A DNA stretch of 64,000 nucleotides from Bdellovibrionales bacterium. GTDB lineage: Bacteria > Bdellovibrionota > Bdellovibrionia > Bdellovibrionales > UBA1609. Below, piece by piece: positions 531-28,356 of this stretch (its first letter is position 1; the number at the start of each line of letters is the position of its first letter). The stretch lies in contig OZ220490.1 in the NCBI GenBank assembly GCA_965116175.1, positions 129,643-193,642 of the forward strand. Reading direction: 5' to 3'. Under the pieces are notes generated by a model. It had not been told where the DNA came from, made no database searches, and saw only the letters and a program-made list of their open reading frames with translations. The position numbers and the translations under genes were made by a program.

Positions 531-2612
531 TTGTCTTTTTTATTTTGGAGATTTTATCCGAATAAGATTTTAACTGACAATTTAAAAATTATTTACAGGA
601 GTTTGGATTTGAATATTTTACAAAAAACCTTTTTACTTTTTTCTTTTTTAATGATGAGTTTGTTGTCATCTGAAACCTATGCTTCGTTTATGCCGGTTAA
701 TGATGTTTGTTTGCATCCTATGGAAGAGTTGGCTTTATTTGGTTCTCAAAAGAGGTCTGTTGAAGATGAGATTAAAGCCTTGGAAGAGCAGCAGAAGGCA
801 GTGGATGAGAGTATTAAATATGTGAAAGGGAAAAAATACGAGAACGAAAACAAAGATTTGGACAGTCTTCTCACTAAACTTGAAAATTCACTTGTTCCAA
901 TCAGCCAACAAAATAATAGTATTGATCAAGAGGATATAACAAGTATCGTTTCTGAATATATAGAAGGACGATACAGCTCTTTGGATGAAATTGATGGAGA
1001 AGATTCTGATGAGGATGATAACGATTGGGCTGTTGATGACGATCTCATTGAAAAAGCGAGACTGTATGAAGAGGATCCTCTCTTGGATGAAAAACTCTTT
1101 AAAAAAGAGGGTAATATTGATCAAAGAAAATTTTGTGAGAAGTATGCTTCCGAAAAAAAGGAAAGGCGCTGCAGAAATGCTATTAATGATCTTGAAGAAT
1201 TATACGATGAATTGGATGAATACAAAATTCAGAGGGCGGAAATAACCAATAAGATTAATGAATTAGAAGCGGTTGAATGGCGTATAAAAGCTGGTTTGCC
1301 TGTAGATGAAGAGTATGCGCAGTATTTGGAAGCAGGAGGCCCCTGTTGGGAATGTTTGGATCAGTTAAGAGAGCTGGATAAACCTACAGCAAGTCAGGCA
1401 ATCGGAAGTGTTGGGGCTTTTCTTGGCGGCGCCGCGCTTTCTTATTATGGCTACCGGGCTGGAAAGCGTGCAGCGCCGAAAATTGATAAATTAAGATTGA
1501 GACAGGGGTTTGATCCTTTAGGTCATGCTCATATGTCCTGGGCTGGTGCCACTCTTGGACTGCCTTTTATGTCCCTTGGGGTTCATGGCTTGGCTGGAGG
1601 AAATTCCGTATTTGGCAGTCATAACTGTAGCCCTGGTTTTGCCACTGGGTCAGGTATTTACGGTCCTTTTTCCCATTACAATATGAATCCAGCGGCTATA
1701 CTTCAGGCTCAGGCCATGTATGGTCAAAATCCGGTTTTTAATGCGGGTTTACAGTTAGGAGGTTCTCCCTATGCGATGTTGAATCCGTTTGGCATGGGGG
1801 GTCTTGGCGCTAGCGGAGGCTTTCAGTTGGGTGGAATGCCGTTTGGCATGGGGGGTCTTGGCGCTAGCGGAGGCTTTCAGTTAGGTGGAATGCCGTTTGG
1901 CATGGGGGGTCTTGGCGCTAGCGGAGGCTTTCAGTTAGGCGGAATGCCGTTTGGCATGGGAGGTCTTGGCGCTGGTGGAGGCTTTCAGTTGGGCGGAATG
2001 CCGTTTGGCATGGGAGGTCTTGGTGCTGGTGGAGGCTTTCAGTTGGGCGGAATGCCATTTGGCATGGGAGGTCTTGGCGTTGGTGGAGGCTTTCAGTTAG
2101 GCGGAATGCCGTTTGGCATGGGAGGTCTTGGTGCTGGTGGAGGCTTTCAGTTGGGCGGAATGCCATTTGGCATGGGAGGAGGTCTTGGCGGCTTTGGCGG
2201 CGGCTTTCCTGGAATGATGAATCCAGCGATGATGCAGCTTCAGATGCAACAACAGCAGTATACCCAATACTTGCAGATGCAACAACAGCAGATACAATTT
2301 CGTTTACAAGCCCAACAGGCTTGGCTGAAACAACAACAGTCTATTCAACAAGATAGAATGCGCAGGCAGGAAGTTATTGGCGGTCTTGTTCAAGAAATGG
2401 GCAGGATACAACAACAGATACAGCTTGTGGCTTCAGGAGGTATAAATAATTCTGCTTTAGGAACATTTAACACCAATTTCAATACCGGTTGGAATGTAGG
2501 GGAAAATCTGGTTAATAATCAGGTCCCTGGCACTTCTACTGGCCCTAGCCATCAACCGGCAGTTACAAATAAAGGGACTTCTTCAGGTGACTATAAGGTT
2601 ATTAGAGAATAA
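531..2612 (+). CDS. Secreted low-complexity protein: signal peptide, acidic coiled-coil region, Gly-rich 18-aa tandem repeats, Q-rich tail
   Basis: 693-aa ORF. The likely true start is TTG near 609, just after AGGAG, giving MNILQKTFLLFSFLMMSLLSSETYA. Contains PFGMGGLGASGGFQLGGM x7-8 and then a poly-Q-rich segment (QMQQQQYTQYLQMQQQQ). Confidence 0.75.
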   Translation: MSFLFWRFYPNKILTDNLKIIYRSLDLNILQKTFLLFSFLMMSLLSSETYASFMPVNDVCLHPMEELALFGSQKRSVEDEIKALEEQQKAVDESIKYVKGKKYENENKDLDSLLTKLENSLVPISQQNNSIDQEDITSIVSEYIEGRYSSLDEIDGEDSDEDDNDWAVDDDLIEKARLYEEDPLLDEKLFKKEGNIDQRKFCEKYASEKKERRCRNAINDLEELYDELDEYKIQRAEITNKINELEAVEWRIKAGLPVDEEYAQYLEAGGPCWECLDQLRELDKPTASQAIGSVGAFLGGAALSYYGYRAGKRAAPKIDKLRLRQGFDPLGHAHMSWAGATLGLPFMSLGVHGLAGGNSVFGSHNCSPGFATGSGIYGPFSHYNMNPAAILQAQAMYGQNPVFNAGLQLGGSPYAMLNPFGMGGLGASGGFQLGGMPFGMGGLGASGGFQLGGMPFGMGGLGASGGFQLGGMPFGMGGLGAGGGFQLGGMPFGMGGLGAGGGFQLGGMPFGMGGLGVGGGFQLGGMPFGMGGLGAGGGFQLGGMPFGMGGGLGGFGGGFPGMMNPAMMQLQMQQQQYTQYLQMQQQQIQFRLQAQQAWLKQQQSIQQDRMRRQEVIGGLVQEMGRIQQQIQLVASGGINNSALGTFNTNFNTGWNVGENLVNNQVPGTSTGPSHQPAVTNKGTSSGDYKVIRE
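1785..2200 (+). repeat. 54-bp (18-codon) tandem repeat, about 7.5 copies, inside the CDS
   Basis: The unit ccgtttggcatggggggtcttggcgctagcggaggctttcagttgggtggaatg recurs head-to-tail with a few substitutions. Confidence 0.9.
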
Positions 2613-13182: not shown

Positions 13183-14151
13183 TTAATAAAAATCTAATTC
13201 AGCCTCTTTAAATAAACTTGTTTGGTCAAGCTGATTATCATTTTTACGACTTACACTTTCGGCCCATTTTTTTGGATCTTTTGGATCATAAACAGGAGTG
13301 TTCATTGGGCGAGTTTTTAAAGCTCCTTTTTCAAGTTGTTCAATTCTATCACAGGTAATTTTGATATATTTTTTATTTATTTCAGTGCCTGCTCCTTTTC
13401 TTCCATGTCTGATAGCAGAGATAATGCTAGTGCCTGAGCCTAAGAAGGGATCCAAAACCCAATCCTTTTTATTTTTCATGGAAAGAACAAGACGATCTAT
13501 AAGCTCAACAGGAAATTGACAAGGATGATTTGTTTTTTCTACATGATTGTTTTTTACATTAGGTATTGCCCATAAGTCCCCTGGATTTTTTCCTAAAGGA
13601 TTGCAGGAGTATTGACCAGCCTTTGGGCCTTTAAAATATTTTTTCCCTGGGTATTTTTGAGGAACTCTAACAGGATCTAAATTAAATATATAATCATCCG
13701 ATTTTGTGAACCAAACAATAGTTTCATATTGTCCTGAAAATCTTTTTGTGCAATGAAGACCATGTTCAAAGTGCCATATAATTCTATTTCTCATTTTTAA
13801 ATTAAGAGAAGTGAATACAGGAGTTAAAGCTGTATCCAGTGGTATAATAGAGCTATTATTTACATAATTTTCTACCTGCCAGCATAAACTCCCTTTTTTA
13901 GATAAAACACGAACACACTCTTTAATAACTTTAGTTTGTTGTTTAATATAAGTATCTAATTTGAGTTTATTCTCATATTCTTTTCCGATGTTATAAGGAG
14001 GTGAAGTCACTATAAGTTGTATGGACTCATTAGGTATCTGCTTAAGAAGGTTTAAACAATCCCCAGGATAAACTACTACCTTGAAGTTTTTACGAAATGT
14101 AGAATGAATATTCAGACTTTTAAATTTCTTTTGTATGTTAGGGGTTAACAC
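13183..14151 (-). CDS. Beta-class N4/N6 DNA methyltransferase (SPPY type), apparently orphan
   Basis: Motif IV IVTSPPYNIG lies N-terminal to motif I LDPFLGSGTS. No nuclease partner is adjacent. Confidence 0.85.
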   Translation of the reverse strand: MLTPNIQKKFKSLNIHSTFRKNFKVVVYPGDCLNLLKQIPNESIQLIVTSPPYNIGKEYENKLKLDTYIKQQTKVIKECVRVLSKKGSLCWQVENYVNNSSIIPLDTALTPVFTSLNLKMRNRIIWHFEHGLHCTKRFSGQYETIVWFTKSDDYIFNLDPVRVPQKYPGKKYFKGPKAGQYSCNPLGKNPGDLWAIPNVKNNHVEKTNHPCQFPVELIDRLVLSMKNKKDWVLDPFLGSGTSIISAIRHGRKGAGTEINKKYIKITCDRIEQLEKGALKTRPMNTPVYDPKDPKKWAESVSRKNDNQLDQTSLFKEAELDFY

Positions 14152-14721: not shown

Positions 14722-15765
14722 TTATTTTTCATTTTTTTTCTTTAAATGTTGTTCCAGTTTTTTAGCTTCTTTATCAAAATCAGATTCAAATAGCCGGTCT
14801 TGAATGATACGATATTTTTCAAATTCACTTTCAGCAAAATCTTTGGCAATAGCATTGCTGATTGTTCCTGCATTGTCTAAGATTTCCCGTTCATCAAATT
14901 TTAGAAATTGATCTAATCGCTTTGCCCAGTCCTCCATAGTCATGGGGATTTTTCGTTTTGCTCTATCTTCTGCAAGATCAAGGTAAGCGCTTACAATTCT
15001 TCCCAGTGATTCTAACTCTTCCGGTGTTAAGTAGTTTTTTGCGACTAGTATATCTGTCTTTAATATTTTCCCTTTTGGACTGTTTTCCCAACTGGTAAGT
15101 CCCATATTTTTTTTACTACTATCTGCTCTTTCCTTTATAAGTTCTGCTGCTGTCTGGCCGTGAACAGCATAATGAAGTTTATTTTGTGCTTTTGCAAAAA
15201 AATCGCGAGTTGTTGGAGCATCTTTATTATAATCTACACTTGTCGCATAAATATCAGTGATTTTTTGATAGAAGCGTCTTTCACTCAATCGGATTTCCCG
15301 AACTTCGGCAAGTAAATGCTCAAAATAGTCTTCTCCAAGAAAAGAGCCGTTTTCCAGCCTTTTCTTGTCCAAGATATATCCTTTAATGGAAAACTCTCTT
15401 AAAACATGAGTTGCCCACTGGCGAAATTGTGTAGCTCGCTTTGAATTCACTCTATAACCAACAGAAATAATAGCATCTAAGTTATAAAATAAGGTGTTGT
15501 ATTTTTTGCCATCTGGGGCAGTATGTGCAAAATTTGCACATACTGAATCTTTATCTAATTCCTTTTCATTAAATATATTTTGTAAGTGCTTTGTGATAAC
15601 AGAACGATCTACAGAAAACAGCTCAGCTATGAGTTTTTGTGTGAGCCAGATAGTGTTATCTTCATAGCGTACCTCGATCTGATTTTTACCTTCCTGAATG
15701 GTGAAAATTAAAAACTCTGCTGTGCTGTTTCTAATAATCAACTTTTTAGAATTTTTCTTTTTCAT
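14722..15765 (-). CDS. rhuM: RhuM-family protein
   Basis: 347 aa. IRNSTAEFLIFT...IWLTQKLIAELFSVDRSVITKHL...ISVGYRVNSKRATQFRQWAT is typical of the RhuM virulence family. Confidence 0.8.
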   Translation of the reverse strand: MKKKNSKKLIIRNSTAEFLIFTIQEGKNQIEVRYEDNTIWLTQKLIAELFSVDRSVITKHLQNIFNEKELDKDSVCANFAHTAPDGKKYNTLFYNLDAIISVGYRVNSKRATQFRQWATHVLREFSIKGYILDKKRLENGSFLGEDYFEHLLAEVREIRLSERRFYQKITDIYATSVDYNKDAPTTRDFFAKAQNKLHYAVHGQTAAELIKERADSSKKNMGLTSWENSPKGKILKTDILVAKNYLTPEELESLGRIVSAYLDLAEDRAKRKIPMTMEDWAKRLDQFLKFDEREILDNAGTISNAIAKDFAESEFEKYRIIQDRLFESDFDKEAKKLEQHLKKKNEK

Positions 15766-15888: not shown

Positions 15889-16158
15889 TTTCATCCACCA
15901 GAGAAGCCTCTGACCAAGCTAAAAATTCATGTAGATTTTTATGTAGCCCCATGTAGCTAAAGATTGAAATATTAGAAAATACTCAGATATAAACACAGTG
16001 AAATGCAAATTGCCTGATTAGCCAGGGGGTTTGAAATATCCCGACATTTCCTGAAATGTCCTGAAACGGATAAACACAGAATAGACCGGACCCTTTTGGG
16101 ATAGAAAAAGTGTAAAGTATGTCTCCAGAATAGACCATAGACCGAAATCAATGGTCGG
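15889..16158 (+). repeat. att-arm repeat copy B plus degenerate tRNA-end core
   Basis: Homologous to copies A and C. Ends GAAATCAATGGTCGG, keeping 7 nt of the tRNA-Pro 3' end. Confidence 0.7.
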
Positions 16159-16244
16159 GGAGATTATTTCTCCTTTAAACCATTGAAAACACAAAACTTT
16201 TAAATCCCATGTAGCTCTATGTAGCCACTTACCTTTTATTTTTA

Positions 16245-16997
16245 ATGGTTCATGATACTTTAAGTTGCCTTAAAAATTGGTTAACCTATTGTATTTACAT
16301 GAAAAATAAGTATTTTATTCGTTCAAGGATTTCGGAGGCTAAATTTAGAGAAATTATCAAGTTATTTGCAGGAGATTTAACAGCTTGTCAGATAGCTTTA
16401 TTTTCTGGTGTCAGCAGAATATGTGTGAATAGAATTTTAAAACAAGTGAGAATAAGGATCACTGAATTTTGTGAACAGGAAAGTATTTTTGAAGAGGGAG
16501 AAGTGGAAATGGATGAGAGTTATTTTGGAGCTCGTCGTATTCGTGGAAGAAGAGGAAGAGGGTCTTATGGAAAAACCATTGTATTTGGACTCAAGCAAAG
16601 AAAAGGTAAAGTTTATACTCAAGTTATTAGGAATTGCTCTAAAAAAGTCATTATTCCCCTTATAAATCAAAGAATATCTAAGTCTGCTATTGTTTATACA
16701 GATGGATTTAAGACTTATGATGGTTTAGTAGATTTAGGTTATAAAAAGCATTATAGAGTTCATCATGGAAACAATGAATTTGCTAAAAAGGAAAAAAAGA
16801 AGATTAGAAATCATATCAACGGAATTGAAAATTTCTGGGGTTTAGCTAAAGTTAGATTATCAAAGTTTAGAGGAATGGATAAAAAAACTTTTTACTTGCA
16901 TCTTAAAGAATGTGAGTTTAGATTTAATCACAGAAAAGAAAACTTATATAAATTGATATTAAAATTAGTAAAAAATAATCCTCTTAAAGTATCATGA
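16245..16997 (+). CDS. IS1595-family DDE transposase
   Basis: VEMDESYFG...GKTIVFGL...VYTDGFKTYDGL...HINGIENFW is an ISXO2/IS1595-type DDE domain. Probable start is M19 at 16299. Confidence 0.9.
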   Translation: MVHDTLSCLKNWLTYCIYMKNKYFIRSRISEAKFREIIKLFAGDLTACQIALFSGVSRICVNRILKQVRIRITEFCEQESIFEEGEVEMDESYFGARRIRGRRGRGSYGKTIVFGLKQRKGKVYTQVIRNCSKKVIIPLINQRISKSAIVYTDGFKTYDGLVDLGYKKHYRVHHGNNEFAKKEKKKIRNHINGIENFWGLAKVRLSKFRGMDKKTFYLHLKECEFRFNHRKENLYKLILKLVKNNPLKVS

Positions 16998-17000
16998 ACC
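16247..17000 (+). mobile_element. IS1595-family insertion sequence, intact
   Basis: Perfect 18-bp terminal inverted repeats (GGTTCATGATACTTTAAG / CTTAAAGTATCATGAACC). Flanked by an 8-bp direct duplication TTTTTAAT (16239-16246 and 17001-17008). Confidence 0.9.
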
Positions 17001-18174
17001 TTTTTAATAAAGGGAATAACCACATTGTTGGAATGAGCCTGAAAATGCAAACCATAACTAAGTTTGTTCGTGCTTCCTTTTACTCCAACACCTGCCAAGC
17101 GATTATAAACATCTGTCGTGGCTATTTTCCTATGTCCCACAATGGACATTACAACATTTAAAGCCACACCTTTGGACAACATATTGGTAATAAAGGTCCT
17201 CTCAAATCATGGAATTTCACTTCAGGGATATAACTCCCTTTACAAAAATCCCTTAAAATTTCTGATTGCATTCCCGCTCTCCACTCTCTTAATCTTGGAA
17301 GAAGTAAATTGTCCCATACAAAAAACACCTTCTCTTGTTTAGCCTCATTCTTCCACTTCCAAAGTGTTTCCCTATGATCGCCTTTAGCCATAAGCCACTT
17401 TAAAAGAGATTTTAATTCATCGGCTATAGGAATAACACGGCTGAGACTTGTCTTTGTTTCGTGAAGTCCGTCTCTCGAGGTGAATTGTCTTTTGATATGG
17501 ATAATCCCTGCGGACATATCCACATCAGACACCCTAAGAGCGTATATCTCGCCGTTTCTCATCCCTGTAAATAAGGCTACAGCCCAATGAGAATAAAACC
17601 TGTGATCGCAGATTTTCCCTTCACTTAGAAGTTTATCTGCCTCCTCAGAAGTTAAAACCTTTTGTTTTGGAGCGGGTATTGTAACTTTAATACCCCTTGC
17701 CGGATTTCTGTTAATTGCGCCCTCTTCAACCGCCATCTCAAAAACTCTTCTCAAAGCTTTATGAAGATTCTTTTTTTGATAAGGGGTGGCAGAAAACATA
17801 TTCTCAAAAATGAGTTTATGTATATCAGCTCTTGTAAAAGTTTGTAACTCTTCCTCATTCCAAACTCTTGGAGTCCATTTGCCGAGAATTTTCTCGTAAT
17901 TAAGGACTGTAGAATATTTTAAGGAAAACTGCATTCTCCTTAAACATTCCTCCAGCCAGTTCTTCCATTTCCATATAGGCTGACCTTCTTTTTGAGCAAT
18001 AAGCTCTCGCTTTAACTCAAATTCAACCTTTTTGGCCGCTGGAATAGAAGAGATAAAGTTTCCTTGAAAATCCTTTCTTCTTCTCGTTTGTAATCTCTTA
18101 CCTCTGGCTTTAATACCGACATATACCTCATACAATTTTTTACCTTCTTTTGATTTATAAGTTGTTATTGACAT
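17001..18174 (-). pseudogene. int: Tyrosine recombinase/integrase, disrupted by a frameshift and by IS insertion in its last codons
   Basis: Likely start is ATG at 18174, after GGAGG. HDLR (HxxR) at about 17200 is followed by a 1-nt frame break. The C-terminal LSKGVALNVVMSIVGHRKIATTDVYNRL (catalytic Tyr) continues in ORF 16928..17182. Removing the IS restores ...PFIKNKR-stop. Confidence 0.85.
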
Positions 18175-18177
18175 AAT

Positions 18178-18363
18178 TATACCTCCTTTTTTTGGAGGCA
18201 ATTTGCCAAATCATTTAACTTAAACTTTAATCTACTGCCTAACTTGTAGGCTTTTACTTTTCTACGGCACACTAAAATACTGAGAGCGTTTTCACTCAAC
18301 CCCAGAAGACCAGAGGCTTCTTTGGTGGATAAAAGTTTGTTTATTCGGTTTTCAAAGAACAGT
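18178..18363 (-). CDS. xis: Excisionase/AlpA-like HTH protein (start codon unclear)
   Basis: My own translation gives ...NKLLSTKEASGLLGLSENALSILVCRRKVKAYKLGSRLKFKLNDL, an Xis-type HTH pattern. The stop lies 4 nt from the int start. No ATG/GTG/TTG is in frame; CTG at 18363 is possible. Confidence 0.5.
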
Positions 18364-18375
18364 TCTTTCTTTGAA

Positions 18376-18591
18376 CTATGCGCATCTGGAGGAGTGTTTT
18401 TCTCTGTTTCTGCTCCCTCCCAAAGAAAGAGTTTTTAAGTTAGACTCTTTCTCTTCTTTTTGCAACAGCTCTTTTATAAGCTGTTTTGGCTCTTCCTGTT
18501 TTTTACCGGAAAGATGTTTTTTCCCTGATGCCCTGTTCTTCAATGTTCCAGCAGAAAAACTGTCAAGCCCTAAACTTAATTGTTTTTCCAT
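18376..18591 (-). CDS. Small Lys/Glu-rich hypothetical protein
   Basis: 71-aa ORF preceded by AAAGGAG. It lies next to the xis reading frame and could be one gene with xis if a frameshift is present. Confidence 0.35.
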   Translation of the reverse strand: MEKQLSLGLDSFSAGTLKNRASGKKHLSGKKQEEPKQLIKELLQKEEKESNLKTLSLGGSRNREKHSSRCA

Positions 18592-19150
18592 TGGCTTATA
18601 CTCCTTTGGGGGCAGGGGGTTGATTGTTTAACATCCTCCCATAGAATGCTTTTTTAAAAAGGGTTATCCCTGTCCTTATATTTTTTTAGCCTCCGCTCAC
18701 TTGAAGTAAAGGGGCGAGCTCACCGGTGGCGATGGCCTGCGGCCACCCTTGACTTGCAAGTTCGCTCCGGCTGATAAGCCAACCAAAAAATATAAACCTA
18801 TCCTGACCAGTCTTGCTGAATGAACAGAAGACCTGAGCTTCCAAAACCTAAAAATGGAATTTTTATTTTTTTGTTTGATGAAATTAAAGTTTGCTTTTCG
18901 CTATCCTGATTTTGATAAACCAAAAAGTAGCAATAGAAATAGAGAGTGCGACACCTAGACAAAAAAAACCTGACCATTGATTTTTACAAGCTCAAGAACC
19001 AATCCTCAAAAATCCAAAAGAGCTATCAATCAAAATCAACACTCTTAAAAATCATTAAAAACTTCACAGCCTGTAAAAATCACCTTCTTCCTTTTCCTAA
19101 ATTTCCCTTTCCTCACCAGACCCAGACCTCCCTTAAATAAAATACATACA

Positions 19151-19217
19151 CAAACCGGACGCTGACCACCCTCCACGAAACCAAAGGATGAGGGGGGGGT
19201 GGTCAGCGTCTGGTTTG
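19151..19217 (+). other. 21-bp GC-rich stem with a 25-nt loop
   Basis: CAAACCGGACGCTGACCACCC ... GGGTGGTCAGCGTCTGGTTTG. The only non-Watson-Crick position is G:T on the plus strand (G-U in RNA) and C:A on the minus strand. Confidence 0.6.
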
Positions 19218-20036
19218 TGAAAACTCCTTTGTTTTTAAGGGTTTGAAAGGAATCAAAAAAAAGATACTTAACACCTCTTTAATGCCCTCTTTCCCCAGTA
19301 ATTACAAGCTTTTTTAAAGGCGCTCACACTTTAGCTTCAGCTGAAAATTTATACACCTAACAGTCAATTTTAGGGTCATTTATAAAAATCATAAAATATA
19401 CCTACTTTGCGATGGTGTTTGCGATTGATTTTGAGCTATGAGCTTGTCTTACATGCTTGCTCACACCCTCCTTTCATGTTCAGGAGCAAGCCCTTACCTG
19501 ATTCTGAGCTATGACTTACCGGCTATTCACAAGCGACCTACCGTAAAAATTTTTTAGCTAAGAGACAAAGAAATTCATATTAAGAAGACCAGTGAAGTAG
19601 GCTTACCTCACTCTCTGGTAGGGCTTTCATACATGACAGAGCCTGCTTTCCACCCTCATAGGTCTAAGATACTCGCTCACCAGGAGGGCTTATCTCTCCT
19701 GAAGACTGCTTCTTACCTACCAGTTCATCAGTCCCTTTCATCAAAAAAATATCGGCTTATAAAGAAAAAATTTCTGCTTAAAGAGCCTTATAAAACCGAT
19801 TTACTAACCCCATTTACAGGATTTTGGAGCAACAACTATGCTCTTACCCGCTCTTCAAATTCCTGTAAGCTTGCTTCACAGGGGGTCTTATCAACCAAAA
19901 TAAGGTGATAAAAAAAACAAAAGAGTCTCCTATATGAAGATTGAGAAATTGTTTTATATGTTGAAGTTTAAGAATCCTCCTCCCTCAAGCCCTCAACAAA
20001 GGATGACGGGCTGTTCGAGAGGGCAGATTTTTATAT

Positions 20037-21950
20037 TTAGTTTTCTAAGAAATAAGAAGAAATACCCTTGAATAATTTCTCATATTCTTTATCAATATTT
20101 TCATTTTTTAAGTTCTCAAAAATGAAATTTTTAGTTTTTTTTATTATATCTTCCTGTTCTTCTCCAAGAATATTGTTTGTTTGTAGCCATGATCTAATTT
20201 GTTTAAGTTTATCTACTTTTTTCTTTAAGAAGCTTTCATCAAATATGAGTGCTTTTTCCATAATAGATAAAACTTTATTTACATTCTTTACAATACAATC
20301 ATTTTTTATGAAATCTTCTCCAGTACTTGCTTCAATTGTTGGATCGATATTTTTATAGGTTTTCCAATCACCAAAGTTTCTTTCTTTTTGATATGATTCT
20401 TGAGATCTAATTGCGATCTGATCACTATCACTCAAAATCAAACATTTTCGTTTTGCCAATTCAATCATTGGGGTAATCGTTTTGATTGTAGGAACACCTT
20501 TAGCGTGACAAACTCCTATATCTTTACAAACAGCTTTTAATTCTTTTTTAGGAAGCTTTTGTATATATACTTGAAACAGATGTTTATCTCGCCAACCTTC
20601 AAAAATAATATTTTTTTCTTTTAAAATTTCAAACACAGAAAAGCCCAGTGCATTATAAAGCACTTCCTCATCTACTATATTTGAATCTATTGCTTGATTA
20701 ATTGTAGTAATTTCATCTTCTTTTTTTACTATATAATGTTGGCCAATATTCCCAGAGTTGATCATAAAAATTGAATGTGTACTATAAACAATATAGTTTT
20801 TATTTGAAATTTTGATAAGCTCATCCCGTAAATAGCGAGCTCCACTAGGATGTAAGCTTATATCTGCTTCATCTACTAATAACAATGTATTCATTAATTC
20901 ATTAGTTTTTACACGAACAGAAATTAATAAAAGAAAAGTAACAAACCTTTTAAACCCATCACTCCGACGTGCAAAATCATAAGTATTTTTTTCTTTTATT
21001 CCTGGAACAATTTGATTGGCATTTACCTTTAAAGAAAATTCTATATTTTTATAATCTTTCCATACTTTACGAAAGTGATTTGTAGTTTTTTTTGCAATGC
21101 TGTTGAGATAATTTTGAAATTGATTAGAAGTTCCTCTTCTCTTTTCTTGAAGAGAATGTTGAATATCTTCAACCCTAGCAAGAGTGAACATATTTTTTAA
21201 AGGAATATAGGAATCCGGGTTTCTTATAAAATCATCAATATTTATGATATCTGGTAAAAGGTTTTCTTCACTATAATTCCAAAATAAAACGTCTGGAATA
21301 TTTTCTTCTAGTATTTTTGAAACAGACTCATCGATCAGTTCTTCAAGGCTTTTAATATCAGCCTCTTCTAAATAATCATCCGGTATTTCATTAAAATTGC
21401 TTACTTGAAGGAATTTATGTTCAAGTAAATTATATTGTTGTCCTTCTACTTCTATATTAAAATCTTGAGGGCAGGTGTTTGTTGGTTTTTTCCACTTACC
21501 AAGGAGATTATATTCATCAGATAATGCATAATAACCAAAACTGCTTTTATTTTCTTCAAGAATATTAACTTCATATACCACTTCATTTTGTTTATAGCAC
21601 AAATCCTTTATACTTTGTTTTTTCCCTTTTTGAGATGCTATATCTGGATTTTTCTTATTTGCTATAACTTTTTCAGATACAAGTTCAAATAGTTTATTCA
21701 ACTCTTTAGTTTCAAGCTTAAAAATGAATTGAACATATGCTTCAGTAACAGTTTCTTCATCAGGTAGAGCTTCTCGTAAATCTCTATTCTTTTGTGGATT
21801 ATATTCCTTTTTCAACAATGTTAGAGCATTTAGAATATTTGACTTACCAGATTCATTTATACCTACAAGTACACGACAAGGGTGAGAGAAATCAAGAGCA
21901 ATTTCTTTAATAGAACGAAAGTTTTTTATTTCCACACGATCAAGTTTCAT
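20037..21950 (-). CDS. OLD-family ATPase plus Toprim nuclease
   Basis: MKLDRVEIKNFRSI...GINESGKSN (Walker A), LLLVDEADISLHP (Walker B), and a C-terminal Toprim-like IIFEGWRD ... LILSDSD. Confidence 0.85.
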   Translation of the reverse strand: MKLDRVEIKNFRSIKEIALDFSHPCRVLVGINESGKSNILNALTLLKKEYNPQKNRDLREALPDEETVTEAYVQFIFKLETKELNKLFELVSEKVIANKKNPDIASQKGKKQSIKDLCYKQNEVVYEVNILEENKSSFGYYALSDEYNLLGKWKKPTNTCPQDFNIEVEGQQYNLLEHKFLQVSNFNEIPDDYLEEADIKSLEELIDESVSKILEENIPDVLFWNYSEENLLPDIINIDDFIRNPDSYIPLKNMFTLARVEDIQHSLQEKRRGTSNQFQNYLNSIAKKTTNHFRKVWKDYKNIEFSLKVNANQIVPGIKEKNTYDFARRSDGFKRFVTFLLLISVRVKTNELMNTLLLVDEADISLHPSGARYLRDELIKISNKNYIVYSTHSIFMINSGNIGQHYIVKKEDEITTINQAIDSNIVDEEVLYNALGFSVFEILKEKNIIFEGWRDKHLFQVYIQKLPKKELKAVCKDIGVCHAKGVPTIKTITPMIELAKRKCLILSDSDQIAIRSQESYQKERNFGDWKTYKNIDPTIEASTGEDFIKNDCIVKNVNKVLSIMEKALIFDESFLKKKVDKLKQIRSWLQTNNILGEEQEDIIKKTKNFIFENLKNENIDKEYEKLFKGISSYFLEN

Positions 21951-22001
21951 ATTAAATTCACCCTCCTTTATAATTTAGATTATCTATAACAGAATAAATG
22001 G

Positions 22002-22958
22002 TTACTTATAAAAATTCACAAAAGCATTATTACCTAATTTGCTGAAAAGATCTTTTATATTTATATTTTTCAATATTTCAAAATCACAAGGTAATCCAAT
22101 CCTTCCAACATTTTGCATATGTTTATCTAAGTATTGTTTAGATTTTGGGTCATTGTCCACAAGGATGCTATTTCTTCCTTCCTCAATACAAACCCTTCCA
22201 GTCGTTCCTGATCCAGAGAAAAAGTCTAAAACTAGAGAGTTTGGATAAGAAAGTGACTTTACAAACCTTCTTATTATTTCCAAAGGTTTTTGTGTTGGAT
22301 GTCCTACTCTTTCTTTTGAGTTTGCATTTAATCTTGGAATCTCCCATACATTCGTAGGATTTTTCCCTTTTTCAATATTATGAGGATTTAACCTTTTATC
22401 TCTTAAGGCAATTTGTTTTGCTACTAAATCATATGGAACTCGAACAGAATCAAGGTCAAAATAATATTGTTTTGTCTTTGAGAGCCAAATAATTTCTTCA
22501 TATCTATTAGCGAAAAAACGATGTGCAGACATTCCGTTTTTATAATGCCAAACTATTAAATTAACAAAGCGCAGTTTAGTATTATGTCTTGTATAGTGTA
22601 AAATTTCTAAAAGATCCCCCTTCTTTAAATCTTGATATTGAAAACCTCCAAAAATCACACAGTTGCCTGAATCACTTAAAATCCTATAAATTTCATCCAA
22701 CCATTGTTTAGCCCAATCCAAATAATTTTCAAATTTATCCCATATATCTAATTCAAGATTATATGGAGGATCGACAAGTATTAACTGGATTGATGAGTCT
22801 GGCAATTTTTTTAAAAAATTAACAGCATCTTCAATATACAGGACATGCTTAGTTTTTTTTGGTAGTTTACTTGTAATAAAAGAACTGTGTTTCTTACCTT
22901 TTTTATTGATAGAATTCATTGCTTGATGTCCTGAATTATAATGTGATCTATTTGCCAT
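22002..22958 (-). CDS. Beta-class N6/N4 DNA methyltransferase (DPPY type)
   Basis: LILVDPPYN (motif IV) precedes DFFSGSGTTG (motif I). Its start overlaps the upstream helicase gene by 11 nt. Confidence 0.9.
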   Translation of the reverse strand: MANRSHYNSGHQAMNSINKKGKKHSSFITSKLPKKTKHVLYIEDAVNFLKKLPDSSIQLILVDPPYNLELDIWDKFENYLDWAKQWLDEIYRILSDSGNCVIFGGFQYQDLKKGDLLEILHYTRHNTKLRFVNLIVWHYKNGMSAHRFFANRYEEIIWLSKTKQYYFDLDSVRVPYDLVAKQIALRDKRLNPHNIEKGKNPTNVWEIPRLNANSKERVGHPTQKPLEIIRRFVKSLSYPNSLVLDFFSGSGTTGRVCIEEGRNSILVDNDPKSKQYLDKHMQNVGRIGLPCDFEILKNINIKDLFSKLGNNAFVNFYK

Positions 22959-25683
22959 TGATAAACTCCATTCTGTTTAAAAAGTATTTAGATGTGAGAA
23001 AATTCTTACCAAATAATTCTTTTAATATGGACAATTCTTTTCTTGGTAGTTCAATGCTCTTTTTTAAATAATATTTTTTAATTGCATCAAATCGCATTTT
23101 CAACAATGTATCTGGTTCTTTAGATTCAGAAATTAATAATTTTGGTGAAACTAAAAATAATTTTAACTCTATGTTGTTTCTACTATTTTCTAACACTCCT
23201 ATAGCTTCTAATATATTGAGAAGGAAAGGACATCGATGTTTCGCTCCCTCCTCAGTAGCAACATCAATACCATTTTGGTCACAGTATTTTGAAACTTCTT
23301 GAGAATTAAAAAAGCCATTATAAATATTTGATTTTGGTATAATCATTTTTCTCTCTACTCTATAAAGATAATTAAGCATAAGTCTAACTGCTTGCATATC
23401 TAAAAACATATCCCTAATTTTATCTTTTTTATTTTTGGATTTTTTTATAAAGTTCCGAGTAACTAAATTGAACTTTGCCACTGGAGTATTCATATCCCAT
23501 GAGGGAATATTTTGTTTTTTACTTCCAAATGATAAATTCACTTTTTCAATGACAGGTTTTAAAATTCTATAAAAATCATATCCTTTTGGATTTAGTTTTA
23601 ATTCAAATGTTTCATTTTCTTCTAATGTTCTGTCATCTACTATTAATCCAAGCTCCATTAAACCTTGTAATTTATATTTAGTTTGTCTTTGAAAAGTTCC
23701 AAGCCTTCCAGTATCAAATTTACCTCTCATTCTTACAAATTTTTGATTGAGATGACTTTTTTTAAACTGACCAGAGTGTATAGTCTTAATAATATAATAT
23801 AAATGTCCTAAATGAAGACCTTGTGGAAAATGATAACTTGCTTCGGTGAACTCACCAATTTCTCTAAGGAACTTTACCCACGATTTAAAAACTGAAAGAT
23901 AACGAGCAACTTTAAATTCTCCTTGTTTGTTTATATCTTCTTGTGTTGGTTTTCTGTGTAGAGATTCAGAAAGATCGTAATATGCTCCAATCAGATCCTC
24001 TTTTGTTATTTCTCTATCTTGTTTATCTTGTGTATCAAGAATTTGTTCTACCTCACTGTCAAAATACACATTACATTTTGGAGAGTATTTATATTCAATT
24101 TTTTCAATTCTACCGGTTTTTGGATTTTTAATCTCTTCCGAAGATTGTGAAATATACTTCCTTATTTTATTGGCCTTTTTATAATTACTGATAAAGTCTA
24201 AGACTATAACATTAGATTTACCACCACAGAGACGCAAACCTCTTCCAAGTTGTTGCATAAAAATTGTTTTAGATTCAGTAGGACGTAAAAACATCAAAAC
24301 TTGCACATTTGGAAAATCTACACCTTCATTGAAAATATCCACAGTAAAAGCAACTGCAACCTCATTATTTTTAAACTTGTCTGTCAACTCAGCCCTCTGA
24401 TCAGCTAAAGAGGTTATTGCAACAGAAGGAATTCCATGAAGATTAAAAAATCTTGACATTCTGTTAGCATGTTTTATTGAACAACAAAAACCTATTGCTT
24501 TATTTCCGTGTCCTTTTTTTAAGTATTCTTCAAGAATCTGCTTATTTCTTTTTTCTATGATTAGATGACGATCAAGGTCTTGAATATTATATTTTGTCCC
24601 TTTGTAGCGGATATTTGAATAATTGATATTATCTTTTAATCCATAGTAATTAAATGGAACTAAAAAACCATTTTCTATAGCTTCAATCAGTGAATATTCA
24701 AATACTTTATTATAGTCAAAAAGTTCAAAAATATCCTTACGATCCATTCTATCAGGTGTAGCTGTTAAACCTAACATGAAAAAAGTAGGATTAAAGTATT
24801 CTATTATTGATTTATATGTGGGGGCTTGGCCATGATGGACTTCATCAACAATAATATAAGCAAATTCATTTTTTTTAAATATCTTTAAATTGGAGACATT
24901 TTTTAATGAATCTTTAGAAGCAAAAAGTGTTTTAGAGTCCTTTAAATGCTCTCTAACATCTCCTGTAAGTAAACCCAATTTTTCTTTTGGATATACTTTT
25001 TCAAACGCTTTTTTTGACTGACTGAGAATATCCAACCTGTGGACAATAAATAAAACTCTCCCATCTGTTTTTAAAGTATCAAATGCAGACAAATAAGTTT
25101 TACCTGTTCCTGTAGGTAAAACAACGATTCCTTTTTTCCAACCCCTTTCTCTATACAAATGAAGAGCTTTTAATACTTCTTCTTGTAAATAATTAGGTTT
25201 AACAATAGTTTCAGAAATAAGTTCAGGGAAATTTTCTTGTATCAGCTTTCTAAGGTCTTCAAAAACTCGTTGTCTCCATGCTGATGATTGAAGTTGATTA
25301 TATGAAAAACGAAGTAATTTATAACCGGAATTTAAAATTTCATTTTGACGATAAAGATTATCATCAAACATTTCATTAGGAATAACCCCTTCTGCATGAT
25401 AAAGTTCTCCATTTACTTCAAGGGCTATCTTCTTACTATTTTTTAAAATTACAAAATCAATTCTTCTATTTTTACCTTCTGAATCAATAAAAGGGTATTG
25501 AGGAATAACATATTTAATATTTTTCTTTCCAAGTATGGGATATAAAAATTCTGAAACAAACAATTTTTCGCTATTTTGTGTTATTCTTTTTTTATAACTG
25601 CTTAAATATTCTGAAAGTTCAACTATTTCCTTTTTTTCAAAAAGATTTTTCCAAAGATTTCTTGATAATATTTGGTCTGACAT
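22948..25683 (-). CDS. DUF559/Vsr-like nuclease plus SF2 (ResIII-type) helicase with an unassigned 350-aa C-terminal region
   Basis: RIDFVIL..IALEVNGELYH..GYKLLRFSYNQL, then LPTGTGKT, IIVDEVHH, GLTATP and QQLGRGLR. Residues about 560-911 are unrecognised. Confidence 0.9.
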   Translation of the reverse strand: MSDQILSRNLWKNLFEKKEIVELSEYLSSYKKRITQNSEKLFVSEFLYPILGKKNIKYVIPQYPFIDSEGKNRRIDFVILKNSKKIALEVNGELYHAEGVIPNEMFDDNLYRQNEILNSGYKLLRFSYNQLQSSAWRQRVFEDLRKLIQENFPELISETIVKPNYLQEEVLKALHLYRERGWKKGIVVLPTGTGKTYLSAFDTLKTDGRVLFIVHRLDILSQSKKAFEKVYPKEKLGLLTGDVREHLKDSKTLFASKDSLKNVSNLKIFKKNEFAYIIVDEVHHGQAPTYKSIIEYFNPTFFMLGLTATPDRMDRKDIFELFDYNKVFEYSLIEAIENGFLVPFNYYGLKDNINYSNIRYKGTKYNIQDLDRHLIIEKRNKQILEEYLKKGHGNKAIGFCCSIKHANRMSRFFNLHGIPSVAITSLADQRAELTDKFKNNEVAVAFTVDIFNEGVDFPNVQVLMFLRPTESKTIFMQQLGRGLRLCGGKSNVIVLDFISNYKKANKIRKYISQSSEEIKNPKTGRIEKIEYKYSPKCNVYFDSEVEQILDTQDKQDREITKEDLIGAYYDLSESLHRKPTQEDINKQGEFKVARYLSVFKSWVKFLREIGEFTEASYHFPQGLHLGHLYYIIKTIHSGQFKKSHLNQKFVRMRGKFDTGRLGTFQRQTKYKLQGLMELGLIVDDRTLEENETFELKLNPKGYDFYRILKPVIEKVNLSFGSKKQNIPSWDMNTPVAKFNLVTRNFIKKSKNKKDKIRDMFLDMQAVRLMLNYLYRVERKMIIPKSNIYNGFFNSQEVSKYCDQNGIDVATEEGAKHRCPFLLNILEAIGVLENSRNNIELKLFLVSPKLLISESKEPDTLLKMRFDAIKKYYLKKSIELPRKELSILKELFGKNFLTSKYFLNRMEFINGK

Positions 25684-25688
25684 AATGT

Positions 25689-25907
25689 TTATTCCATTAA
25701 ATTATCAATAGTGACGTCCAAAGCAACAGCAATCTTCTTTACGGTTTCAATAGTTGGATTTGGAGTATCACCTGCTTCAATTTTTGTAATTGTATTAAAT
25801 GATACCTCTGCAAGTTTAGATAACTTATCTTGAGAAATACCTTTTTCATTCCTATACTTTCTTATATTTTGTGCTATTACTGACAAATGTTTTTTTGATC
25901 GGCTCAT
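25689..25907 (-). CDS. XRE-family HTH regulator (controller-protein candidate)
   Basis: 72 aa. IRKYRNEKGISQDKLSKLAEVSFNTITKIEAG is a canonical HTH_3 pattern. Stop lies 5 nt before the helicase start. Confidence 0.85.
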   Translation of the reverse strand: MSRSKKHLSVIAQNIRKYRNEKGISQDKLSKLAEVSFNTITKIEAGDTPNPTIETVKKIAVALDVTIDNLME

Positions 25908-25992
25908 AGTATAACTTTACTAATATAGGGTTATATATGACAGCTATCACATAATGAATACTATGATCAAGCTGTTTCAGTGCATCATTTTT

Positions 25993-26205
25993 TTTCATCC
26001 ACCAGAGAAGCCTCTGACCAAGCTAAAAATTCATGTAGATTTTTATGTAGCCCCATGTAGCCAAAGATTGAAATATTAGAAAATACTCAGGTATAAACAC
26101 AGTGAAATGGCAGTTGCCTGATTAACCAGGGGGTTTGAAATATCCCGACATTTCCTGAAATGTTAAAAAATAGAATCTGTAAAGTTTATGAAATCAAATG
26201 GTCGG
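25993..26205 (+). repeat. att-arm repeat copy C abutting the tRNA-Pro 3' end
   Basis: Homologous to copies A and B. ATGTAG at 26033, 26045 and 26055. Runs into GAAATCAAATGGTCGG, which is the tRNA 3' terminus. Confidence 0.7.
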
Positions 26206-26275
26206 ACCGACAGGATTTGAACCTGCGACTTCCACCGCCCCATGGTGGCGCGCTACCGGGCTGCGCTACGGTCCG
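26199..26275 (-). tRNA. tRNA-Pro (anticodon GGG)
   Basis: Hand-folded: acceptor CGGACCG/CGGTCCG, D arm GCGC-AGCCCGGTA-GCGC, anticodon arm CCACC-AUGGGGC-GGUGG, T arm GCAGG-TTCAAAT-CCTGT, discriminator A, encoded CCA. Confidence 0.95.
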
Positions 26276-26340
26276 ACAATTTTTTAAATAGATACATTTT
26301 TTTCACAAGAACGAATCAAAGAAAAATTTAAAAATCAAAA

Positions 26341-26430
26341 TCAGTTTTTTTGTAATTTAAACTTTTTAAACAGAGCGCCCTCCACATAAAAGCAGATGCA
26401 AAACAAGAAAGCCAAAAACACACTCCACAT
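26341..26430 (-). CDS. 29-aa hydrophobic mini-ORF 3 (identical to mini-ORF 2)
   Basis: Its ATG overlaps the TGA of mini-ORF 2 (TGATG). The frame is intact. Confidence 0.3.
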   Translation of the reverse strand: MWSVFLAFLFCICFYVEGALFKKFKLQKN

Positions 26431-26519
26431 CAGTTTTTTTGTAATTTAAACTTTTTAAACAGAGCGCCCTCCACATAAAAGCAGATGCAAAACAAGAAAG
26501 CCAAAAACACACTCCACAT
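26430..26519 (-). CDS. 29-aa hydrophobic mini-ORF 2 (MWSVFLAFLFCICFYVEGALFKKFKLQKN)
   Basis: Its ATG overlaps the TGA of mini-ORF 1 (TGATG). The frame is intact. Confidence 0.3.
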   Translation of the reverse strand: MWSVFLAFLFCICFYVEGALFKKFKLQKN

Positions 26520-26608
26520 CAGTTTTTTTGTAATTTAAACTTTTTAAACAGAGCACCCCCCACATAAAAGCAGATGCAAAACAAGAAAACCAAAAACACA
26601 CTCCACAT
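26519..26608 (-). CDS. 29-aa hydrophobic mini-ORF 1 (MWSVFLVFLFCICFYVGGALFKKFKLQKN)
   Basis: Its ATG overlaps the ccsBA TGA by 1 nt (TGATG). The frame is intact. It is derived from the ccsBA C-terminal coding DNA. Confidence 0.3.
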   Translation of the reverse strand: MWSVFLVFLFCICFYVGGALFKKFKLQKN

Positions 26609-28356
26609 CAGTTTTTTTGTAATTTAAACTTTTTAAATAAAGCTCCCCCACATAAAAGCAGATGCAAAATAAGAAAGCCAAAAACATACTCCACTCCTCC
26701 TGAGCCAAAACCGTAAGAATGCAGTCCTGTTCCTAAAACAAAATTGACTCCATACCAGGCCATGATAATTGAAAAAAACATCATCACTGAGCCTATAGCC
26801 ATGCCAAAGGGTTGAATCCAGCCAACAAGTTTTCCATGAAGCAAAGCCAAGTAAGCCAAAAGGCTCACCAAGGCCCAAGACTCCTTAGGGTCCCATCCCC
26901 AAAAGCGCCCCCAGGAGTAATCGGCCCAAACTCCTCCCAAAATAGTTCCTCCTGCCAGAAAAACAACCCCCCATTGAATAGTTCGGTAAATAGGCGTATA
27001 CATTTTTTTGATTAAAGTCATAGGTTGGGATTTATTTGTAAGATAAGAAATCAAAGCTATATCTCCCAAAACGAAAGCCAGAAAAAAGAAGGAATAGCTC
27101 ATAGTGATAACAAGCACATGAGTTGTCAGCCAAAAAGAGGAATTTAGGACAGCTTCAAGAGGCTGTAGGCTTCCATCCAAAATATCTGGAGCCAGATTTG
27201 TGAGAAGCAGACAGAAAAAAGATAACAGAACACCAGCGATAAAAGGCAATTTGGAGCCTCTCAAATAAAAAACAAAGCCAGCAATAAGGGCCACCCAGGG
27301 AACCCAAACCACAGTTTCATACATATTGGAAACAGGAGGACGAGACATAATATATGAGCGGAGAAGCATCCCTAAACTATGACAGGCAAAACCAATGAAT
27401 ACAAAAGGAACAAACCATTTAAAAAAATGAAGTTGTTTTAAAGCATAGAGGCCAAGCACTGCCATTAAAAAGAGTAGGTAAAAAATCCAGGCCTTTTGAA
27501 AAGGTTTAAAACCATTATAAAAAACCTCTGTCTGAATCTTAAAAGATGGAAAGCTTAGTTGTGTTTTGTTTTTAAAAACAAAAGTTTGAAATTCCTCCAT
27601 TTGTTTTTTGAATTTTAATAAATGATCTGAAGCATGGATGCTTTGTGAGGGATCAACTTTTCCTAAAGAGTTTTTAAGCTGTTCAACACTTTCTTTATAA
27701 GGCTGTTCAGATTCTTTATTTTGTGTCACAGCGCTTTTGTTATGTAAAGGAAAAATATTTTTTGAAATTAACTGAACATAACTTGCAATGATTTGTTTAA
27801 ATTTTTTCTCAGCAGGTTTGGTCATCTCTGGGAGGGAAAGCCATGTTGTCTTATTTTCCTGAGGCTCAACTCGTATCAGCAAACCTGTTTTTAAAGCCAT
27901 GTAGAGAATCAGCCTTGTTTCCAGTTTTTCAAGATCTTGAAAATAGGAATCCAATCTCTCTTTTCTTTGCTTTAGAGATTTAAGCTCCACCATTTGTAAA
28001 GCCAGCTTTTTGTTGTTCTTTAATTCAGAGGGTTTAAAGTGTTTTTCTTTTACAGGCAAATCAAGAGACTTCTTAATGTCTTTTTGATCGATTAAAATTA
28101 ATTCTGTATTTTCCCAAAAGTCAGGAATAATAAGCCATGATAAAATCACATCTACAGCGGCTCGTTTTTTATAAGTCTCCCTGCCGTAGACTGTTCTTAA
28201 AACCTCACGGGAAAAGGTATCAAAAGGTTTAATTCTTCCTTGATACTGAACAGGCAAGGATTTCCAAATATTCTGCGCTTTAGGAATTTCCCCTTTTGAA
28301 CAGGAAATAAATCCAAATAAAAATAAAAGAATAAAGCTGTAAAAAATTCTATACAT
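26608..28356 (-). CDS. ccsBA: Cytochrome c biogenesis protein, fused CcsB/CcsA (System II)
   Basis: 582 aa. N-terminal ResB-like periplasmic region plus a polytopic C-terminus with the WWD motif VWADYSWGRFWGWDPKESW. Confidence 0.85.
   Translation of the reverse strand: MYRIFYSFILLFLFGFISCSKGEIPKAQNIWKSLPVQYQGRIKPFDTFSREVLRTVYGRETYKKRAAVDVILSWLIIPDFWENTELILIDQKDIKKSLDLPVKEKHFKPSELKNNKKLALQMVELKSLKQRKERLDSYFQDLEKLETRLILYMALKTGLLIRVEPQENKTTWLSLPEMTKPAEKKFKQIIASYVQLISKNIFPLHNKSAVTQNKESEQPYKESVEQLKNSLGKVDPSQSIHASDHLLKFKKQMEEFQTFVFKNKTQLSFPSFKIQTEVFYNGFKPFQKAWIFYLLFLMAVLGLYALKQLHFFKWFVPFVFIGFACHSLGMLLRSYIMSRPPVSNMYETVVWVPWVALIAGFVFYLRGSKLPFIAGVLLSFFCLLLTNLAPDILDGSLQPLEAVLNSSFWLTTHVLVITMSYSFFFLAFVLGDIALISYLTNKSQPMTLIKKMYTPIYRTIQWGVVFLAGGTILGGVWADYSWGRFWGWDPKESWALVSLLAYLALLHGKLVGWIQPFGMAIGSVMMFFSIIMAWYGVNFVLGTGLHSYGFGSGGVEYVFGFLILHLLLCGGALFKKFKLQKN

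Follow-up and report, generated by a model that had tools for sequence, protein, structure and literature searches.

In a 64,000-nucleotide stretch of DNA from Bdellovibrionales bacterium (contig OZ220490.1; the whole of this stretch is hereafter the window, and position 1 is its first letter), the end of a ccsBA-like gene for a System II cytochrome c synthase is followed by three further copies of itself, and at each of the three junctions a 29-amino-acid (aa) open reading frame (ORF) with a hydrophobic beginning overlaps the stop codon in front of it. We conclude, with a probability of about 0.8, that this is a young, lineage-specific, staged and probably neutral tandem duplication, minisatellite-like in kind, of the 3' terminal 88 bp of the gene. 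The mini-ORFs, together with their start codons, hydrophobicity and coupling geometry, are then automatic results of where the breakpoints fell and of one insertion. A first-pass annotation of the same DNA had entertained both plain replication slippage and a family of single-transmembrane (TM) micropeptides translationally coupled to the synthase; every test that we ran agrees with slippage or tandem duplication, and the coupled family found no support.

Anatomy of the array, its parent gene and its relatives

Tandem Repeats Finder (TRF) delimited a single array at 26340-26694 (period 89, 4.0 copies, 96% matches, score 647), whose units stand head to tail at a constant period and with an identity beyond chance. 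The 64-kb window contains four occurrences each of a 47-nt and a 37-nt piece of the unit, every one within the array, where shuffled sequences are expected to give, and gave, 0; the copies are spaced 89/89/88, and no copy of the unit was found elsewhere in the window, the ends of a neighbouring genomic island included. On the minus strand, the order is the 582-aa ccsBA-like gene (unit 1 being its end), units 2-4, a 64-nt spacer and tRNA-Pro(GGG). TRF and the coordinates thus agree with the earlier description of a last stretch of ccsBA repeated three more times before the tRNA. The parent copy had been given as 89 bp; it measures 88 nt, namely 28 codons, TGA and one base. The features are as follows:

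26608..28356, minus strand: parent gene, 582-aa short CcsBA-like System II cytochrome c synthase (ORF, Pfam, 7S9Y match)
26607..26694, minus strand: unit 1, 88 nt, the last 28 codons plus TGA and one base; encodes VEYVFGFLILHLLLCGGALFKKFKLQKN
26518..26606, minus strand: unit 2, 89 nt, copy with the +1 insertion and Y->C (CcsBA frame)
26429..26517, minus strand: unit 3, 89 nt, identical to unit 4
26340..26428, minus strand: unit 4, 89 nt, distal copy, followed by the original 3' flank TTTGATTTTTAAATT...
26519..26608, minus strand: mini-ORF 1, 29 aa, MWSVFLVFLFCICFYVGGALFKKFKLQKN; its ATG overlaps the ccsBA TGA (TGATG)
26430..26519, minus strand: mini-ORF 2, 29 aa, MWSVFLAFLFCICFYVEGALFKKFKLQKN
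26341..26430, minus strand: mini-ORF 3, 29 aa, identical to mini-ORF 2
26276..26339, minus strand: AT-rich spacer, 64 nt, from the array to tRNA-Pro
26199..26275, minus strand: tRNA-Pro, anticodon GGG, same strand as ccsBA (ARAGORN; Rfam tRNA, 61 bits)

The duplicated segment begins right after the invariant HSYGFGSGG of the CcsBA-like protein, and the product of unit 1 comprises the last TM helix and the basic tail. Divergence within the array is graded: 6 substitutions and a 1-nt indel separate unit 1 from the copies (~7%), 3 substitutions separate unit 2 from units 3 and 4 (3.4%), and none separates unit 3 from unit 4 (0%), which argues for a staged history. These figures bear out the first-pass annotation on the identical distal units, on a proximal unit that differs by three substitutions of which two change an amino acid (A/V and E/G, with GGC/GGT silent), and on the 1-nt indel relative to the parent gene and the ALFKKFKLQKN tail common to the mini-ORFs and CcsBA.

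The direction of change can be read from the C-termini of 38 homologues, which follow the pattern ..GG(V/L)EYV.GFL.LH..LC.LA.FK+... with E556, Y557 and V558 nearly invariant, and unit 1 keeps this pattern. In the CcsBA frame, the copies carry Y557 -> C, and the +1 insertion truncates the frame to ..LLLCGG(R/C)SV and a stop; from the standpoint of CcsBA, they look like decaying fragments. In a 69%-identical relative (L002), the gene end is also AAAAAAACTGAT, after which unrelated sequence follows without a repeat, and the pre-duplication state was therefore the gene, TGA, T and flank. Here, we show that unit 1 is the ancestral form and, judged from its sequence pattern, still under selection as part of the gene; the converse, a unit 1 derived from copies that preserve the original C-terminus, is ruled out by the homologue C-termini.

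We infer that the array grew in three or more steps, through either slipped-strand replication or unequal recombination, and that it is neutral. The first duplication would have taken in the stop codon and one base, which is why the gene is intact in unit 1, and the copies would have landed in untranslated DNA before tRNA-Pro. The copy lineage, released from selection on CcsBA, would then have gained the +1 insertion and the substitution of Cys for a nearly invariant Tyr, and the altered copy would have been duplicated again to give unit 2 and then the identical units 3 and 4.

The relatives compared were six of the closest homologue loci (67-72% aa identity; L001, L002, L083-L086) and 80 GTDB Bdellovibrionales loci (L003-L082; 38-60% identity), with the ccsBA stop codon being locatable at 85 loci. 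The six near relatives have neither a tandem repeat at the ccsBA end nor a tRNA downstream, and the 80 GTDB loci have no array across the 3' end and no tRNA-Pro. A hydrophobic ORF of 20-60 aa starting at -10..+15 of the ccsBA stop occurs at one of the 85 loci, with an unrelated sequence, and a peptide homologous to the mini-ORFs accompanies the stop at none of them. The first-pass annotation had suggested relatives as a check on whether the ORFs stay intact as the repeats diverge; no sampled relative holds the array or a comparable peptide. A protein-pattern scan of GTDB genomes returned no strain-level counterpart, and a junction 33-mer and an invariant 22-mer were absent from JGI metagenomes, the sole match (L087) being an unrelated chance match. 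A frameshifted C-terminus in the relative P0011 (L001 4750-4830, ..GGCRVCFWLSPLAFAFVRLGFI) was considered as a parallel event and set aside: it consists of a 1-nt indel on a contig of 3x coverage, is not accompanied by a repeat, and is most likely a sequencing error.

Downstream neighbours vary from one near relative to the next (transposases, a multihaem cytochrome, an AbiE toxin-antitoxin pair, a hypothetical gene, a signal peptidase, a pseudopilin), while the upstream genes, a type II secretion system (T2SS) GspG-like pseudopilin and a ~200-aa pseudopilin-like gene, recur in several of them. Synteny in this clade breaks at the 3' end of ccsBA.

The parent protein matches Pfam Cytochrom_C_asm (PF01578) over residues 343-541 (2.3e-24), i.e., it has a CcsA-type domain, and its WGRFWGWDPKE stretch (the Trp-rich WWD region) is invariant across the 38 homologues. 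It also matches the solved fused CcsBA 7S9Y (E 1.3e-53), with residues 35-169 aligned to 409-544 of the chain and residues 252-553 to 597-904, regions that correspond to the CcsB-side periplasmic segment and the CcsA part. No ResB Pfam domain was matched at E <= 0.01, leaving the protein without a full CcsB/ResB module at that threshold. Its length is 582 aa against 942 aa for 7S9Y, whose first ~400 residues are unmatched, and NCBIfam TIGR03144 scores 129 bits, below its cut-off of 187.6. Because no ResB hit was obtained, the protein is ~360 residues shorter than 7S9Y, and the NCBIfam score is under threshold, short CcsBA-like or CcsA-family synthase would be the safer name. The protein has 6005 homologues, named CcsA in Bdellovibrionales; the exact sequence forms a cluster of 1 member on one contig (1.89-Mb), and the nearest relative is only 70-72% identical.

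Origin of the mini-ORFs and their stop/start overlaps

All three junctions carry the co-directional stop/start overlap AACTGATGTGG, and the three uninterrupted 29-aa ORFs of the first-pass annotation, MWSVFL(V/A)FLFCICFYV(G/E).., match the sequence. Each junction reads ..ACTGAT/GTGGAG.. (the slash marks the unit boundary), such that the AT just before the boundary and the G that opens the next unit form an ATG. The mini-ORF start codon is accordingly an artefact of the duplication junction, and the three TGATG junctions are copies of one event, with a geometry that was inherited rather than independently conserved. Reading from this ATG runs through the TM-helix codons in their +1 frame until the insertion restores the original tail and TGA.

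An open frame is not peculiar to the mini-ORFs. In each unit, all three sense frames run without a stop for approximately 65 nt from the beginning, the stops being concentrated in the A-rich tail, and the other frames consequently carry ORFs of 48 aa, longer than the mini-ORFs. On Kyte-Doolittle (KD) hydropathy, the only property scored here, the first 18 residues of the mini-ORFs reach 1.9-2.2 and are followed by a Lys-rich tail, and the mini-ORFs of units 3 and 4 place a Glu within the hydrophobic stretch. Across the parent gene, +1-frame translations of TM-like windows have a mean KD of 1.30 as opposed to -0.23 for hydrophilic windows, and one third of those from TM-like windows exceed 1.6, so the hydrophobicity of the mini-ORFs can be explained by frame-shifted TM codons. 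The mini-ORFs would be by-products: the junction makes the ATG, the +1 reading of TM codons is hydrophobic and stop-free, and the insertion restores the tail.

The differences between copies were also examined for signs of selection. Between unit 2 and units 3/4, the mini-ORF frame shows 2 non-synonymous changes (A/V, E/G) and 1 synonymous change (GGC/GGT), and the same three differences in the defunct CcsBA frame are 2 synonymous and 1 non-synonymous; the E/G change places or removes a charge inside the hydrophobic stretch. Stop-creating substitutions make up 6% of those possible in the mini-ORF frame and three substitutions leave it open with ~83% probability, and three intact mini-ORFs are the expected outcome because the copies are 96-100% identical by descent and so few changes create a stop. 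As far as such tiny numbers can be read, nothing points to purifying selection on the mini-ORF frame. The first-pass annotation had taken the preserved coupling geometry as a hint of function. This does not hold up, given one junction that was copied, an ATG that is an artefact, other frames that are equally open and no sign of purifying selection.

Signals of expression were scarce. A Shine-Dalgarno (SD) core (GGAG/GAGG/AGGA at -20..-5) precedes 0 of the 3 mini-ORF ATGs and 16 of the 43 long ORFs in the window, and the mini-ORF peptides have no Pfam match. The ORFs of the array (29, 31, 48 and 54 aa) are absent from a collection of 15 billion proteins in which the CcsBA of the same contig is present, an absence that means that gene callers left them uncalled even in the source genome. 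With no family, no presence in relatives and a 2:1 ratio of substitutions, the ORF downstream of ccsBA does not behave as a genuine conserved or selected gene.

Points against neutrality and alternative explanations

Several observations weigh against a neutral duplication or limit what can be said of it. It is precisely because of the +1 insertion that each ORF terminates at a TGA overlapping the next ATG, and the resulting ORF-to-ORF TGATG is a proven reinitiation geometry, strictly coupled in 13 of 14 tested pairs with a variable contribution of the SD sequence (PMC6728339). Low-level translation of at least the first mini-ORF by termination-reinitiation may accordingly occur. Only three substitutions are informative, so selection is not statistically excluded, and the ~7% divergence between unit 1 and the copies implies that the first duplicate persisted for a while without recombination removing it, which is compatible with some benefit and is not evidence of one. 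Breakpoint microhomology was not seen at the duplication ends, and the searched collections hold no conspecific sequence.

A role of the repeat in cis is improbable. As a spacer or 3' untranslated region element, the DNA or RNA might influence how stable the ccsBA mRNA is or whether transcription reads through into tRNA-Pro; it might instead be a recombination or att-like site linked to the mobile island at the tRNA. Scans of the minus strand found no terminator and no consensus promoter in the array, and none in the 64-nt spacer, i.e., no terminator separates ccsBA from the same-strand tRNA-Pro, and the array lies at the synteny breakpoint, where the nearer of the 172-nt repeats flanking a 10-kb island with an integrase is ~180 bp away. 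However, the fold of the whole array is unremarkable (z = -0.2), with no Rfam family besides the tRNA, on which grounds an RNA element was rejected. A dispersed repeat or att site of the island was rejected likewise: within the window the unit is confined to the array, the 3' end of the tRNA is not duplicated, and the 172-nt repeat that flanks the island differs in sequence from the unit and lies across the tRNA from it. Relatives have no comparable element.

Slightly less probable still are functional, newly born genes, in which ribosomes that finish ccsBA would reinitiate at each junction and supply a single-TM peptide, in as many as three copies, that inserts beside CcsBA and modulates CcsBA or the membrane. 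The TGATG at all three junctions, a type of overlap that commonly gives termination-reinitiation with a variable SD contribution (PMC6728339), is in line with this explanation, as are the A-rich, unstructured sequence upstream and the 18 hydrophobic residues followed by a Lys-rich tail. Furthermore, random hydrophobic peptides can have membrane phenotypes (PMC6550523), and we keep a small probability for gene birth because of it. Yet the stops of the 85 relatives offer neither a homologue nor an analogue, no Pfam family is matched, and the gene callers behind the public protein collection left the ORFs uncalled. The substitutions run 2 non-synonymous to 1 synonymous, with a Gly/Glu exchange in the TM core, the other frames are no less open, no SD sequence is present, and the junction and the frame-shifted TM codons account for the ATG and the hydrophobicity. 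Finally, purified CcsBA works alone in vitro (PMC8112865), and therefore no small subunit would be expected.

An early stage of gene birth, in which the out-of-frame duplication and the insertion have produced three serially reinitiated cistrons from the ccsBA message and the single-TM peptide is only beginning to be selected, seems very improbable on the same evidence.

Equally remote is an assembly artefact, in which the assembler expanded or collapsed a repeat and so produced the array, or at least its copy number. Because units 3 and 4 are identical, sequence differences do not fix how many of them there are, and related long-read metagenome-assembled genome (MAG) contigs contain low-coverage indel errors (P0011, 3x contig). 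However, there are three distinct unit types (1, 2 and 3/4) that differ by substitutions and an indel, which assemblers do not invent; the indel is not in a simple homopolymer context in units 3/4; and the array spans just 355 bp on a 1.89-Mb contig, well within single long reads. The possibility that TGA is a sense codon here and that CcsBA extends through the array was dismissed, as TGA ends 9 of the 45 long ORFs in the window, long ORFs cover ~80% of the window under translation table 11, and an orthologue ends at the same AAC TGA.

Known systems and genomic surroundings

Bacterial tandem duplications of the minisatellite or variable-number tandem repeat (VNTR) type arise by slipped-strand mispairing or unequal recombination, and copy-number polymorphism is the hallmark of a VNTR. 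The ccsBA array resembles them in its head-to-tail arrangement, constant period, high identity, younger copies at one end, restriction to one lineage and the company of other young arrays in the same genome. It differs in that the unit starts inside a gene and includes the stop codon, and in that the period is not a multiple of three, and therefore the copies lie outside the gene and carry out-of-frame ORFs.

Overlapping stop/start pairs (TGATG, ATGA; Huber et al. 2019, PMC6728339) share with the array the co-directional TGATG, here at three successive junctions. In contrast, the known pairs are conserved genes that often encode subunits of one complex, whereas the ORFs of the array are 29-codon duplicates with no homologues, constraint or SD sequence.

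Small membrane subunits offer another comparison. CydX is a small single-TM subunit of cytochrome bd. CcmD is one of System I (CcmABCD, PMC9616876). Like these, the mini-ORFs would encode a short hydrophobic peptide adjoining, on the same strand, the gene of a cytochrome-related membrane protein. Unlike these, which are conserved beside their partner in many species, the mini-ORF peptides are found in one genome and match no family, and the one hydrophobic ORF seen among the 85 relatives has an unrelated sequence. Moreover, the System II CcsBA is active alone in vitro.

De novo or 'overprinted' proto-genes that arise from frame-shifted copies of coding sequence (reviewed in PMC12315717) are similar in that a new ORF appears in an alternative frame of existing coding DNA and in one lineage only. 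They differ in that expression and selection have left no evidence here, making the mini-ORFs at best raw material for gene birth.

As it stands, the finding matters little, as it adds a further lineage-specific tandem duplication to a genome with several. Its wider use is as a caution for small-ORF hunting: when a duplication takes in a stop codon, start codons, hydrophobic ORFs and a textbook coupling geometry can arise without selection. Were the peptides translated and of consequence to the cell, overprinting would here have given birth to a bacterial de novo micropeptide, a rare and datable case, and a System II cytochrome c synthase would have its first small partner.

Two further young arrays lie in the 64-kb window, one of 54 bp x 7.4 (95%) and one of 45 bp x 6.1 (93%), and with two others in the same 64 kb the genome evidently duplicates short segments readily. 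The 54-bp repeat is in frame at 1781-2179, within a 693-aa Gly/Met/Gln-rich ORF (531-2612, plus strand), and its units read GMPFGMGGLGA(S/G)GGFQLG. The 45-bp repeat, also in frame, occupies 54605-54878 in the C-terminal linker of an FtsZ homologue (583 aa; 53582-55333, plus strand), where it gives six copies of a 15-residue unit.

The island beyond the tRNA is ~10 kb long, has a low GC content (0.28-0.30) and starts 36 nt past the 3' end of tRNA-Pro. Direct repeats of 172 nt (~15889-16059 and ~25993-26163; ~96% identity, 10,104 bp apart) flank it at 15889-26163, and the array unit is not part of them. The island contains:

25689-25907: Cro/C1 controller helix-turn-helix protein
22948-25683: 911-aa helicase-type restriction enzyme
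22002-22958: DNA methyltransferase
20037-21950: OLD-family ATPase/TOPRIM nuclease
17158-18201: tyrosine integrase
16245-16997: IS1595 transposase

The element resembles a mobile defence island and may be one of a tandem pair: past the left repeat come RhuM (14722-15765) and a second methyltransferase (13183-14151). The Rfam antisense RNA HPnc0260 gave a sub-threshold match at 26072-26237 on the plus strand (45 bits against a gathering threshold of 59, E 0.002), which overlaps the 3' half of tRNA-Pro and the right copy of the island repeat and is probably spurious. Elsewhere in the window, three minus-strand ORFs of 283-286 aa share the near-identical upstream sequence aagagaggagggtttt(t)ATG, which hints at a family of paralogues that duplicated recently and kept their ribosome-binding sites.

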